DNA of 64,000 bases from an uncultured Clostridia bacterium (GCA_947588825.1 CANPZU010000004.1:21649-85648), one strand, 5' to 3'; shown: positions 36,996-52,681, counted from the stretch's first letter. Notes: generated from the letters alone by a model not told the origin. Numbers and translations are program-made.

Positions 36996-38186
36996 ATGGC
37001 AGGCAGGAAAAGGATTGGTGTGTACACCATTTGCAAGAATGAGTCAAAATTCGTGAAGCGATGGATTGAATCCATGTGGAGCAACGGCAACGGCGCGGAT
37101 GCGGCATATGTGCTCGACACAGGCTCGACGGATGGGACGGTGCGGATGTTCAAGGAAACCGTCCGGGAACTTGGCATCCCGCACGGGTGGCTTAAGGTTC
37201 GCCGGAAACTGTACCGTCATTTCCGCTTCGACGTGGCGCGGAACGACAACCTTGACATGATACCGCCGGATTCGTTTGATGCACTTGTCTCGGTCGATTT
37301 GGACGAAATCTTAATCCCGGAATTCTGGGGAGATTTACGTAAGCTAGTGTCGGAGCACCCGGACTTTTTGGAAATAAACTACATGTACGCATGGAACCAC
37401 GACGAGAACGGGAACAATGGGCGCGTATTTTGGTACAACAAGGTGCATCAGCAGAATGGTTTCCGATGGAAGGGCGCTGTCCATGAATGGCATGAGAACG
37501 TCGAGCCGGAGAAATATCAGTACAGCGGGCAGTACTACATGGACGAGAACACTGTCTATCTGCACCACTACCCGGACAACACAAAATCACGTGGACAATA
37601 TCTCGGACTTCTCGAAGAGCGGATAAAGGACATGCCGGACGACATGAACACCTATGTTTACCTTATGAACGAGTACCTTGCGCACGGCATGATGGAAAAA
37701 GCATTTGCAACTGCGAATGTTGCGTATCTTAGGGGAGATGATGGACTGAAATTCCTGTTTGCCGCAAGGATAGCGGATATTTACAACAAATATGGATTAG
37801 AGAGTGAAGCGGACAGGTTCTACCGCATCGCAATCGAAAAAGATAAGACGGTCAGGAATTCCTATATCAACTACGCACAGTTCCTTGTCTACCACGGGAA
37901 AGCAAAGGAAGCGCTCGGCATCCTGATTGACATGGAGCAGAACAACATACACCACCACAACTGGATGGAATTAGACTACGACTGGACGTGGCGACCTTTG
38001 CAGATAAAAGCGGACGCATATTGCTGGCTCGGAAAATACGATGAAGCAAAGAAGCTGTTCGAGGAAGCGGAAGAAAAATATTTACAGAGTGAAAAAGACA
38101 AGGCAGAAGCGCAGGCTTGTGCCTTTTTTGATGATTATGATTGGCTGAAAAACCGACTTAATGAGATTGAGGGGGCGGTCACTTGA
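36996..38186 (+). CDS. Family-2 glycosyltransferase with C-terminal TPR-like repeats
   Basis: The N-terminal IGVYTICKNESKFVKRWIESM...YVLDTGSTDGT is the GT2 signature. The C-terminal half is helical-repeat sequence. Confidence 0.75.
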   Translation: MAGRKRIGVYTICKNESKFVKRWIESMWSNGNGADAAYVLDTGSTDGTVRMFKETVRELGIPHGWLKVRRKLYRHFRFDVARNDNLDMIPPDSFDALVSVDLDEILIPEFWGDLRKLVSEHPDFLEINYMYAWNHDENGNNGRVFWYNKVHQQNGFRWKGAVHEWHENVEPEKYQYSGQYYMDENTVYLHHYPDNTKSRGQYLGLLEERIKDMPDDMNTYVYLMNEYLAHGMMEKAFATANVAYLRGDDGLKFLFAARIADIYNKYGLESEADRFYRIAIEKDKTVRNSYINYAQFLVYHGKAKEALGILIDMEQNNIHHHNWMELDYDWTWRPLQIKADAYCWLGKYDEAKKLFEEAEEKYLQSEKDKAEAQACAFFDDYDWLKNRLNEIEGAVT

Positions 38187-39247
38187 GCAGGTATTACACA
38201 CTGTTTTCAAAGATTATTGACAAGATAAATAATATCTCCCTTACGCCGGGGCCGAAAGGCGACAAAGGTGAACCGGGCAAAGATGGAAGTCCGGGAGCGA
38301 CAGGACCGACGGGGGCTATCGGGCCTACTGGCCCACAGGGATTACAGGGATTGCAAGGGCTTCCCGGAACGCCGGGAGCCGCAGGAGCTGTCGGCGCGAT
38401 TGGCCCTACCGGCCCCACGGGACAGACAGGGGCGCAAGGCCCTCAAGGCAATCAGGGGATTCAAGGGGCTTTAGGCCCTACGGGACCAACCGGAAAAACA
38501 GGCGGCGTTGGGGCTCAAGGTGCAACTGGCGCTACCGGACCAACTGGCCCGAAAGGAGACAAAGGAGACAAGGGAAATCAGGGTGACAGAGGGCTTCAAG
38601 GACTTGCAGGGCCGACTGGACCCACCGGCGCTAAAGGCGCAGATGGAAAGAATGGAACGAATGGTAGTAACGGAGCGACGGGACCAGTAGGCCCAACGGG
38701 ACCACAAGGCAAGCAAGGTAATGTTGGCCCACAAGGTCCTGCAGGTGCCGCGGGTGCAACAGGATCAACCGGAGCGACTGGCCCAACTGGGCCAACTGGG
38801 CCAAAGGGAGATAAAGGGAATACCGGAGACAGGGGGCCAACTGGAGCTACAGGAAGTACAGGGCCACAGGGGCCAGCAGGCCCGGTCAACATCGCCAACA
38901 ACCTCACGACGGACAATGCGGCGTATGCTCTCGCCGCTCCGATGGGGAAGAAATTGCAGGGGGAGATTGATGAACTAAACGCGAGCATATATGTGAGCAC
39001 TAATCAGTTACAAATTACAGGAACCGTTCTTGATTGGGCTTGCAATGCATTACTTCCGGGAAGCGCAATGATAGTCGTAGACAGAATGCCGTCGGACGCG
39101 CCTACTCAAGCAGAATATGCTCTCATTGTTTTTGGCATGAACGTTCGCCGGATGGTTCTGGCTCTCGGATATAATAGCAACAAGATAATGTACTATAGAC
39201 GCATATTCAAAGGCGCTTGGACAACAGAGTGGATCAAGTTATTTTGA
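38183..39247 (+). CDS. Collagen-like tail fibre protein
   Basis: About 70 uninterrupted G-X-Y triplets are followed by a ~115-aa globular C terminus. The TTG start follows the RBS GAGGGGG. Confidence 0.85.
   Translation: MSRYYTLFSKIIDKINNISLTPGPKGDKGEPGKDGSPGATGPTGAIGPTGPQGLQGLQGLPGTPGAAGAVGAIGPTGPTGQTGAQGPQGNQGIQGALGPTGPTGKTGGVGAQGATGATGPTGPKGDKGDKGNQGDRGLQGLAGPTGPTGAKGADGKNGTNGSNGATGPVGPTGPQGKQGNVGPQGPAGAAGATGSTGATGPTGPTGPKGDKGNTGDRGPTGATGSTGPQGPAGPVNIANNLTTDNAAYALAAPMGKKLQGEIDELNASIYVSTNQLQITGTVLDWACNALLPGSAMIVVDRMPSDAPTQAEYALIVFGMNVRRMVLALGYNSNKIMYYRRIFKGAWTTEWIKLF
38973..38985. repeat. Left inverted repeat AACTAAACGCGAG inside the fibre gene
   Basis: It is the perfect reverse complement of 39531-39543. 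Here it is read in frame as (E)LNAS. Confidence 0.9.
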
Positions 39248-39253
39248 CGATTA

Positions 39254-39541
39254 GGATATTACTTTCTTAGTGAATTTATCTTGGTTGATACGATTGTAAT
39301 AATCCAAACCAGCAAAAGACACGACAAGAGCAAATGCAAATTTTCTATTGCTATTTATCCATGCAATAATTATTTGACTGTTAGCGTTGTTTGGGTCGGT
39401 TGACAACGGCAAATTATTATGCGCTGTTACAACAGTATCTGTAGGAATGGTATTAGCCCATGCATCAAGATCTGAAATGCTTATTTGCCCATTATATGTG
39501 CCGTAGGAACCAAAAAACAGCTTTTGTAGACTCGCGTTTAG
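39254..39541 (-). other. Silent, start-less alternative fibre C-terminal cassette (96 codons, inverted)
   Basis: I translated the minus strand by hand as LNASLQKLFFGSYGTYNGQISISDLDAWANTIPTD...LDYYNRINQDKFTKKVIS with stop at 39251-53. A TAA lies directly upstream and there is no ATG or RBS. It is similar to the current fibre C terminus. Confidence 0.75.
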
Positions 39542-39543
39542 TT
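39531..39543. repeat. Right inverted repeat CTCGCGTTTAGTT
   Basis: It is the reverse complement of 38973-38985. On the minus strand it encodes LNAS in frame with the silent cassette. Confidence 0.9.
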
Positions 39544-39575
39544 AACAAAAACCCAAAAAAAGAAAGGATGATTTT

Positions 39576-39929
39576 ATGGACAAAATTGTTTTAAAAGATG
39601 GAACAGAAATTGAAATCCACGAAGGAGCAAGCATTTCTTCCATCACCACCAACATTTACGGCTATGAATACCTCGACACACTGTCGAAGCAGCTCACAAC
39701 CGAAAACCTGTCCGAGGTGAAATTTACGATTGACGATAAAGTGACGGGAATCTACGAGAACATGGTCACGACGAATCCAAAGTTTCAGATTCGGGAGACG
39801 GATGAAGGGTGGCTTGAAGTGACGTTCGGTCTGCGTGAGCGGACTGCGGACGAACTGCATTATGAGGACTTATCGCGGCAGGTCACGGACGCGCAGGTGG
39901 CAATAGCTGAAATCTATGAAACGATGTAG
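39576..39929 (+). CDS. Hypothetical protein (tail-lysis junction)
   Basis: 117 aa, with RBS AAAGGA. Confidence 0.6.
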   Translation: MDKIVLKDGTEIEIHEGASISSITTNIYGYEYLDTLSKQLTTENLSEVKFTIDDKVTGIYENMVTTNPKFQIRETDEGWLEVTFGLRERTADELHYEDLSRQVTDAQVAIAEIYETM

Positions 39930-42542: not shown

Positions 42543-42659
42543 GTGGAGTACAAAAGAGAGGATAATTTGACGGAAAAAATAATGGAAATTCTGAGTATGC
42601 TCCCGAAAAAAGAGAAGATAAGAATTTATCATTATCTTCTCGCTTTGTATTTTCACTGA
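42543..42659 (+). CDS. Possible 38-aa ORF
   Basis: A GTG start follows the RBS GAGGGGAGGG. The ORF overlaps the repressor stop codon by 7 nt. Confidence 0.25.
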   Translation: MEYKREDNLTEKIMEILSMLPKKEKIRIYHYLLALYFH

Positions 42660-43009
42660 CATTCTAAAAGGTTTTTCAAAAGATTTCGTACAGCCTTCTT
42701 ATGCTTCCGCGTGAGTTGGCTGTACATTTTTATTATATTTGCTTCGTCCTCACCGTCTTTCGCTTCTCTGTATGCCCGATATTCTTCTTTGCTCCCCCAT
42801 TCTGTTAAATCATTTGGCTCAACGCCAAGCGCATCTGAAATTTTCTTTAGTAATTCTGTGTCTATTGTCTTTATGTTTCCATTTTCATATTTTTGAATCG
42901 TTGCTTCCGAAAGGGAAACCCTTTCCCCTAACTGTTTTAATGTTAAATCAGCTTCTTTTCTGTACTTTTTTATATTGTTTCCAACTCTCGTGCAAAACTG
43001 CTCTGACAT
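42653..43009 (-). CDS. CI-like XRE-family repressor
   Basis: GNNIKKYRKEADLTLKQLGERVSLSEATIQKYENG is a classic XRE HTH. The RBS AAAGGGGG precedes ATG 43009, so the longer ORF-track version is probably over-extended. Confidence 0.8.
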   Translation of the reverse strand: MSEQFCTRVGNNIKKYRKEADLTLKQLGERVSLSEATIQKYENGNIKTIDTELLKKISDALGVEPNDLTEWGSKEEYRAYREAKDGEDEANIIKMYSQLTRKHKKAVRNLLKNLLECQ

Positions 43010-43034
43010 TGCAAAGCCCCCTTTCTTTTGTATT

Positions 43035-43062
43035 ATTCTATCACAGTATGATAAAAAATCAA
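43035..43062 (-). promoter_or_regulatory. Repressor promoter (PRM-like)
   Basis: On the minus strand: TTGATT, 16-nt spacer, TGaTAGAAT. Confidence 0.5.
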
Positions 43063-43066
43063 TCTT

Positions 43067-43129
43067 TTTATGAAAAAAACTTTCATAACACGATTGACAA
43101 ACTTTCATAATGTGATATAATCTTTCATA
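43067..43129. promoter_or_regulatory. Operator cluster: three CTTTCATA sites plus the palindrome TTTATGAAA...TTTCATAA
   Basis: The sites are at 43080-87, 43102-09 and 43122-29. They overlap the divergent promoters. Confidence 0.6.
43094..43121 (+). promoter_or_regulatory. Early rightward promoter (PR-like)
   Basis: TTGACA, 16-nt spacer, TGaTATAAT. Confidence 0.7.
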
Positions 43130-43160
43130 GCAAGAAAGTTTTTGGAAAGGAGGAATAAGG

Positions 43161-43361
43161 GTGAATCTTCCGAAATTAAAAGGAATTATACGAGAGAGAG
43201 GAAAGACGTATGTGCAGTGCGCCGCCGCGATTGACAAGAGCGTCGCCACGTTTAACTCGAAGATGAACGGTCGATCGAAATTCTATATCGACGAGTTGGA
43301 CGAGCTTGGAAACTTTTTGCATATGTCGGAAACGGAAAAACAGGAAACGTATCTTTCTTAG
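43161..43361 (+). CDS. Cro-like small HTH regulator
   Basis: 66 aa, divergent from the repressor. The GTG start follows the RBS AAAGGAGGA. LKGIIRERGKTYVQCAAAIDKSVATFNSKMNG is HTH-like. Confidence 0.65.
   Translation: MNLPKLKGIIRERGKTYVQCAAAIDKSVATFNSKMNGRSKFYIDELDELGNFLHMSETEKQETYLS

Positions 43362-52075: not shown

Positions 52076-52681
<606 letters not shown>

Follow-up and report, generated by a model that had tools for sequence, protein, structure and literature searches.

A tail-fibre gene that ends between two inverted copies of a short repeat, with a start-less reading frame on the opposite strand behind it, lies in a stretch of 64,000 nucleotides (nt) from an uncultured Clostridia bacterium (GCA_947588825.1 CANPZU010000004.1:21649-85648). 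The whole of this stretch is referred to as the window, and coordinates given without a contig handle (L003, L018 and so on) are window positions. The parts of the locus are named with reference to the Rin shufflon of Bifidobacterium breve/longum prophages, in which a constant part Rc and variable Rv cassettes are accompanied by asymmetric rix sites of 11 base pairs (bp) and by an invertase that is armless and XerD-like (Mavrich et al. 2018, Sci Rep 8:12772, PMC6109161). The two-site module at 38973-39543 and its immediate surroundings are composed as follows.

38183..39247, plus strand: tail-fibre open reading frame (ORF) of 354 amino acids (aa), with a TTG start and the ribosome-binding site GAGGGGG.
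38183..38972, plus strand: constant fibre part (counterpart of Rc), with an N-terminal anchor, collagen Gly-X-Y repeats and a Phage_fiber_rpt neck.
38973..38985, plus strand: left putative crossover site, a 13-nt arm AACTAAACGCGAG with the core TAAACGCGAG at 38976-38985, in frame and reading (E)LNAS.
38986..39247, plus strand: tip cassette A, the expressed C-terminal head, 86 aa followed by a TGA stop.
39251..39530, minus strand: tip cassette B, silent, promoterless and without a start codon, 92 codons past the site, with a TAA stop at 39251-53.
39531..39543, minus strand: right putative crossover site, the inverted copy of the 13-mer AACTAAACGCGAG, with a TAA immediately outside.
39576..39929, plus strand: conserved gene for a 117-aa protein with no assigned function, directly downstream of the module.

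The ORF list and the Pfam matches to Collagen (E=1e-33) and to the Phage_fiber_rpt neck (residues 237-266) agree with the fibre gene and 86-aa tail given in a first-pass annotation of this DNA, and the start-less 96-codon minus-strand frame and the perfect inverted 13-mer are also present as described there. The neck ends in ...KKLQGEIDE and is followed directly, and in frame, by the left site, as in Rin-type shufflons. The AACTAAACGCGAG repeat is perfect over 13 nt (38973-38985 and 39531-39543), with 545 nt between the arms; arm-to-arm identity does not extend beyond this length, and no dyad is present within the 13-mer. The minus-strand frame is open for 96 codons from 39541 to 39254 (LNASLQKLFF...KKVIS), which places a single silent, promoterless cassette behind an identical inverted 13-mer, again a feature of Rin-type shufflons. 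Since LNAS is read in frame at both copies, inversion of 38986-39530 would yield ...GEIDE-LNAS-LQKLFF... at the junction. The tips are arranged tail to tail, with tip B 3 nt from the stop of tip A. By chance, ~0.03 perfect 13-nt inverted-repeat pairs are expected per 2 kilobases (kb), and the tip B frame stays open in 22 of 20,000 mononucleotide and 15 of 5000 dinucleotide shuffles (0.1-0.3%), while the remaining five frames over tip B contain 4-10 stops each. The constant fibre part shows 85-90% identity in the relatives L013, L018 and L038, and the outer flank of the right site, gtttttgttaac, is common to L013, L015, L016 and L017.

Contigs of related phages were recovered through the two proteins that flank the module, the 117-aa protein and a 396-aa protein encoded upstream of the fibre gene. 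A single-protein scan of genome contigs gave one truncated contig, from an uncultured Clostridia metagenome-assembled genome with the isolate name 'Lapin-028', the sole organism name obtained for this phage group. The flanks of L018 match those of the window at 85-89% identity, and this contig carries exact copies of TAAACACGAG at four sites, 1731(+), 2267(-), 3435(+) and 3912(-), the first of them in the fibre gene, and after each site a tip of 73-91 codons is open in the same frame, reading LNT[RS]. Between sites 2 and 3 lies a gene for a 329-aa tyrosine recombinase (L018:2345-3334), which scores above the NCBIfam cut-off for XerA and also matches XerC and XerD. L039 has the layout of L018, with the variant TAAACAGCAG at site 2. 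A more distant, AT-rich group, here called the L003 type (L003, L004 and L049-L051), carries four TAAACGGCAG sites in a +,-,+,- pattern and a recombinase 41% identical to that of L018. The central segment of these arrays holds the recombinase and a homologue of the 117-aa gene, which is a constant neighbour of these shufflons and which in the L003 type lies inside the invertible segment. In L026 the recombinase is 36% identical, and one + and two - sites read LNNDLI. A Rin-like recombinase is present in L018, L039, L003, L049-51 and L026, and the relatives with four-site arrays have three silent cassettes. Sites of one family, TAAAC-N4-R, stand at every cassette start in L018, L039, L013, L003 and L052, occur solely there, and always encode 'LN' at the neck-tip junction. 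The enzyme that accompanies this site family in the relatives is a tyrosine recombinase, armless and XerC/D-like, whose gene lies within the array.

Five L003-type contigs, all from different metagenomes, differ in the arrangement of their segments. Segment 1 of L003 is the inverted segment 3 of L004 (99.6%), and segment 1 of L004 is the inverted segment 3 of L050 (100%). In L051, segment 3 is inverted in place relative to that of L003, and L049 has its central segment, the one with the recombinase, in the opposite orientation with respect to the two flanks. The breakpoints all coincide with sites, and the isomers are those that nested inversions in a shufflon would be expected to produce. Because segments are inverted or exchanged exactly at the sites between these contigs, loci of this kind do shuffle.

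Some further observations concern the sites and recombinase genes of individual relatives. The L039 contig, a SPAdes assembly of a Rin-carrying relative, starts exactly at crossover site 2 (L039:1-16, CTGCTGTTTAATGCAC), as expected of a population of mixed orientation, although at a coverage of 2.2x this may be due to chance. The core variants TAAACACGAG and TAAACAGCAG occur together in L039 (sites 3 and 4 versus site 2), and the left and right sites of L013/L015 also differ; unless the N4 positions fall outside the region of strand exchange, such pairs are unable to recombine, which bears on the location of the crossover. The rin gene of one L018-type assembly contains, at L020:270-310 (~L018 2940-2980), a scrambled ~40-nt patch with a frame-breaking deletion of 7 nt; the recombinase is inactivated there unless this is an artefact of assembly at 3.8x coverage. 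L017:21-30 and L016:285-294 differ in the sequence just inside the right site, in phages that share an identical 117-aa protein and the same right outer flank; this difference shows that cassettes turn over between near-identical phages from different studies. Finally, the 17-mer GATGAACTAAACGCGAG was located in IMG/VR on two unrelated contigs (L054:3883-3899 and L055:2489-2505). Each has a single copy, with no inverted partner, no Rin-like gene and no similarity to the window, and these occurrences are probably due to chance given the size of the collection.

Tip B represents a genuine fibre-tip domain. Four homologues (E 1e-16 to 5e-5, 35-49% identity) emerged when 1.84 billion representatives were scanned exhaustively with HMMER, and all four are small proteins with a fibre-repeat N-terminus and the tip-B domain at the C-terminus. 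The closest structural neighbour of its AlphaFold2 model (predicted local distance difference test, pLDDT, 78) in Foldseek is the phi812 baseplate chain 9euf_8 (probability 0.99), and the model also matches many phage tail-fibre and collagen-repeat proteins, with E values all >0.001. No homologues of tip A were found in a word-indexed protein search with the neck and tip A, and word-indexed searches with the neck and tip B and with the concatenated silent tips of relatives returned nothing. The two tails had initially been regarded as homologous, a view not borne out by default BLASTP, which gives no alignment, or by hhalign of the tip-B family profile against tip A (1% probability). A relaxed BLASTP alignment (26% identity over 77 aa, E=0.004 in an 8-sequence database), a similar order of predicted secondary structure (a helix, then five strands) and six low-significance Foldseek matches common to both tips, where the tip A model is of low confidence (pLDDT 53), point weakly towards it. 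On these comparisons the homology of tips A and B is unproven, and it is not required, because the published Rin cassettes are likewise dissimilar (PMC6109161).

In both the window and L018, all tip cassettes are clearly more AT-rich than the constant fibre part and the recombinase gene. The GC content is 0.36 in tip B and 0.44 in tip A, compared with 0.48 in the window as a whole and ~0.6 in the collagen part; in L018, the cassettes c1-c4 have values of 0.36-0.42, with 0.61 in the constant part and 0.56 in rin. This composition suggests that the tip cassettes were imported from lower-GC phages.

The remainder of the phage genome was walked by exact-protein look-ups, which gave L029 upstream and L033 and L056 downstream (also L057); L029, L033 and L056 overlap and close a circle of ~88.3 kb. 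A tblastn search with the L018 recombinase as query found no Rin-like recombinase in the window or in the rest of this circle, and no further copy of the site is present elsewhere in it. The local XerC/D-like recombinase that defines Rin-type shufflons is absent from this phage, so the module is an orphan, and its switch is probably locked or in need of outside help. Two recombinases of other kinds are encoded.

52088..52681, plus strand: 197-aa serine recombinase of the resolvase/invertase family (Pfam Resolvase, E=1e-29).
L033:10375-11583, ~1.4 kb past the 3' end of the window on the same 88.5-kb contig: 402-aa tyrosine recombinase (Pfam Phage_integrase, PHROG_1).

The serine recombinase is the sole recombinase in the window, as the first-pass annotation correctly noted; the 402-aa protein beyond the window had been overlooked. 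As a separate matter, the lysin gene is followed directly by a repressor gene (42653-43249), with no integrase there. The 402-aa protein is the only integrase-like gene product of the circle, and its gene sits among early and methylase genes, a placement that raises the question of chromosomal integration versus a plasmid prophage.

With respect to orientation, eight of eight assemblies of this phage (four from ENA and four from Logan, all from one project) run collinearly with the window across both sites, with tip A in the expressed position (A-on). The assemblies end in collagen repeats, and none breaks at a site. Alternative arrangements with breakpoints at the repeats, as known from Rin-type shufflons, were seen in none of the eight and were encountered only in the L003-type group. 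Exact look-ups of the flipped fusion proteins of the window, L018 and L013, for which the L013 fibre served as positive control, were empty, a weak negative since the native fibres of the window and L018 are also missing from the collection. The inversion that had been proposed to fuse the collagen stalk in frame to a 92-aa tail is allowed by the anatomy of the module, but flipping as such is unsupported, with all assemblies A-on and the recombinase absent.

Two-site modules without a recombinase recur in two lineages, one represented by the window and L013 types and the other by L052. In L013 and L015 the two sites differ at N4 positions, and the silent tip is still open. L052:5448-5932 is a two-site module in the L003-type lineage with an 18-nt inverted repeat that is 94% complementary (TAAACGGCAGTCTAAATA); no Rin is found in the 1.2 kb that follow, the silent tip has only 35 codons, and the gene after the homologue of the 117-aa gene encodes an unrelated 261-aa protein. 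The relatives suggest a decay series that leads from L018/L039, with four sites and Rin, to the window, where Rin is missing, the two sites are identical and tip B is intact, and on to L013/L015 and L052.

Taken as a whole, it is probable that 38973-39543 constitutes a reduced, orphan two-cassette module of a Rin-type tail-fibre shufflon, likely static unless an enzyme is provided from outside. The constant part ends, at the neck-tip boundary, in the short asymmetric putative crossover site (core TAAACGCGAG, LNAS), and recombination between the two sites would invert 38986-39530 to produce a fibre that ends in tip B. In the sister phages, where sites of this family flank four tips, the enzyme is the armless XerC/D-like recombinase of the array. 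Because the window has identical sites and an intact tip B, its module could flip. Alone, it would most likely be fixed A-on, and would flip only with a Rin-like recombinase supplied in trans by a co-resident relative or by the host. A possible origin of the module is a four-site array in which two sites in direct orientation recombined and thereby deleted the recombinase and one cassette pair, since such a deletion would give exactly the layout of the window.

Several points weigh against a static orphan. Neither a stop nor a frameshift interrupts tip B, in contrast to the 35-codon stub of L052, and the two sites match perfectly over 13 nt; long decay explains this less well than continued use or a very recent loss of the enzyme. 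Assemblies at 5-8x coverage show the majority orientation, which makes the missing flipped form a weak negative, and negative protein look-ups say little where the collection does not contain the native fibre. The genome encodes two further recombinases, the 197-aa serine and the 402-aa tyrosine enzyme, each of which is a candidate, and a Rin-carrying relative was not found in the same samples as this phage. An orphan switch that still works, flipped in trans by the Rin of a sister phage or by the phage's own small serine recombinase, is nevertheless unlikely. If Rin from a sister phage were responsible, the choice of tip would depend on which other phages share the cell; if it were the serine recombinase, this would amount to a cross-family takeover of a tyrosine-recombinase site. 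The recurrence of recombinase-less modules in two lineages could mean that dependence on an enzyme in trans is a stable strategy and not decay.

An active, self-contained switch operated at a distance by the 197-aa serine recombinase, in the manner of Gin, Cin, Hin or Mpi, is quite unlikely. This protein matches PHROG_125 'DNA invertase' (E=1e-53), is the only recombinase at hand in the window, where both sites and tip B are intact, and has a weak match to the Mpi family, Mpi being an enzyme that works in trans on short inverted repeats (cited in PMC6109161). However, its score against the Mpi master-invertase family is 49.8 bits, compared with a cut-off of 272, and its gene lies 12.5 kb from the module within a RecT/DUF3799 replication-recombination module. 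An L018-type contig has both an orthologue, placed in the corresponding RecT/DUF3799 module, and the dedicated in-shufflon tyrosine recombinase, which means that the serine recombinase is not shufflon-specific. Moreover, the site family accompanies the tyrosine recombinase across lineages in which that enzyme is just 36-41% identical, the 13-mer by inspection does not have the 26-bp dyad symmetry of gix/hix sites, and no inverted repeats surround the serine recombinase gene. The role implied for this protein in the first-pass annotation is hence not supported, as the relatives use an in-array tyrosine recombinase with which the serine orthologue coexists; the 197-aa protein is probably not the enzyme of this module.

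The 402-aa tyrosine recombinase, ~26 kb from the module, is very unlikely to drive an active switch. It is encoded on the same contig and belongs to the enzyme superfamily of Rin, and the lack of an integrase at the usual place by the repressor gene leaves its role open, but it is only 22% identical to the L018 Rin over 85 C-terminal residues, it falls far below the Xer cut-offs, and its greater length comes with an additional N-terminal region of the kind found in integrases and not in armless invertases. Its gene is located among early and methylase genes. A phage integrase or dimer resolvase would be the simpler explanation for it. That there is no switch at all, the repeat being due to chance and the minus frame being a decayed convergent gene or a random open frame, is exceedingly improbable. 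Such a reading would agree with the lack of a flipped isomer among the eight assemblies and with the lack of detectable homology between the tips by default BLASTP and hhalign. It is contradicted by the low chance expectations for the repeat (~0.03) and the open frame (~0.001-0.003), by the position of the repeat exactly at the start of both tips and in the same frame, by the presence of the repeat motif at the boundary of every cassette in the relatives, and by the real homologues of tip B; the comparative data effectively refute it.

The 117-aa protein has no Pfam or PHROG family match. The 396-aa protein encoded on the plus strand at 36996-38186 overlaps the fibre start (38183-38186, TTGA), and its gene, which is kept beside the fibre gene in all relatives, appears to be translationally coupled to it. 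The protein has an N-terminal family-2 glycosyltransferase domain and C-terminal TPR/PPR repeats, with a match to the PHROG 'beta-1,4-glycosyltransferase' (E=4e-51), and may glycosylate the fibre. It has no match in IMG/VR, and blastn of 38800-39700 and tblastn of tip B against cultured phage genomes gave no match.

Up to now, all descriptions of tyrosine-recombinase shufflons of receptor-binding protein tips come from actinobacterial prophages. The locus and its relatives extend the Rin kind to phages of uncultured gut Clostridia, with collagen-like fibres, a different site and a recombinase inside the array, and the population-level evidence for shuffling is drawn from public metagenomes. 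The stages of the suggested decay series are on view, from four cassettes with a recombinase, through two cassettes with intact sites and no recombinase, to mismatched sites or a truncated cassette. For annotation, this implies that a reverse-strand frame without a start codon deserves attention where it follows a tail-fibre gene, and that alternative host ranges can hide behind a single reference assembly. The window copy provides a clean test case for the flipping of orphan modules in trans.

Among known systems, the serine-invertase switches Gin, Cin, Pin and Min (Mu G, P1 C, e14 P and p15B Min) resemble the present locus in that a constant N-terminal part is joined by inversion to opposed alternative tips. 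The gix/hix sites are ~26 bp long, with dyad symmetry and a 2-bp core. In these systems the small serine invertase is encoded adjacent to the segment and acts with sis, a Fis-dependent recombinational enhancer, whereas here the site family is linked to a tyrosine recombinase, and the sole serine recombinase is 12.5 kb away and conserved independently of the shufflon. Dyad-symmetric sites of the gix/hix kind were not found at the module by inspection against the consensus. Fibre shufflons with serine invertases are a classic kind of system; recently, one that was hidden in a reference assembly has been revealed by long reads in an Enterobacter phage (PMC12330518).

The R64 shufflon (Rci, sfx sites and pilV tips) has several features in common with the locus and its relatives: it is served by a tyrosine recombinase, its short asymmetric sites show conservation on just one side, its segments bear two convergent C-terminal cassettes, and nested inversions swap segment positions, as in the L003-type isomers. 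The R64 sfx sites are longer, 19 bp, and consist of a 7-bp spacer and one conserved 12-bp arm. Unlike the present locus, R64 varies a conjugative pilus adhesin and not a phage fibre. The recombinases of the relatives score best on Xer-family models, and the likeness to R64 is one of layout and of one-sided site conservation.

A small inversion much like the window module is known from the tRNA-Met-integrated bifidoprophages 689b-1 and Bb423phi2, where a ~500-bp segment bounded by an 8-bp site, with no flanking recombinase, led to the proposal of a trans-acting enzyme (PMC6109161). In both cases a tail gene reaches into the segment with its 3' end and meets a small gene in the opposing direction, and a short repeat bounds the segment (8 bp there, 13 nt here). 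The two orientations were seen between the two prophages, whereas here no flipped form has been seen; on the other hand, sister phages here name the cognate recombinase family. The novelty initially suggested for the locus is thereby not supported, as both the Rin receptor-binding protein shufflon and a recombinase-less inversion of ~500 bp were published in 2018 (PMC6109161). No report of such a system in Firmicutes/Clostridia phages or on a collagen-like fibre was found in the searchable literature, which is incomplete.

The closest counterpart is the Rin shufflon itself, which also occurs in Eggerthella lenta prophages (PMC8778435). The two share a receptor-binding protein gene with a constant N-terminal part, promoterless variable C-terminal cassettes that are dissimilar in sequence, and a short asymmetric repeat before each cassette (the 11-bp rix site, and here the 10-13-nt TAAAC-N4-R core). 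An armless XerD-like tyrosine recombinase is also shared, but on the present side it is found in the relatives L018, L039, L003 and L026, and isomers that differ by inversions at the repeats are likewise found in L003-type relatives. In contrast to Rin, the host is an uncultured Clostridia bacterium (Firmicutes) and not an actinobacterium, the constant part is collagen-like, and the site sequence is another one. The recombinase of the relatives is positioned inside the array between two cassette pairs and not at one end, and the window copy is confined to two cassettes with no recombinase. Of the architectures proposed in the first-pass annotation, Mu G/P1 C/Hin-type or shufflon-type, the second is upheld by the layout of the relatives and the L003-type isomers, while the serine-invertase interpretation is not supported. 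We accordingly place the module with the tyrosine-recombinase systems of the Rin type, as an orphan derivative, and not with Hin, Gin and Cin.

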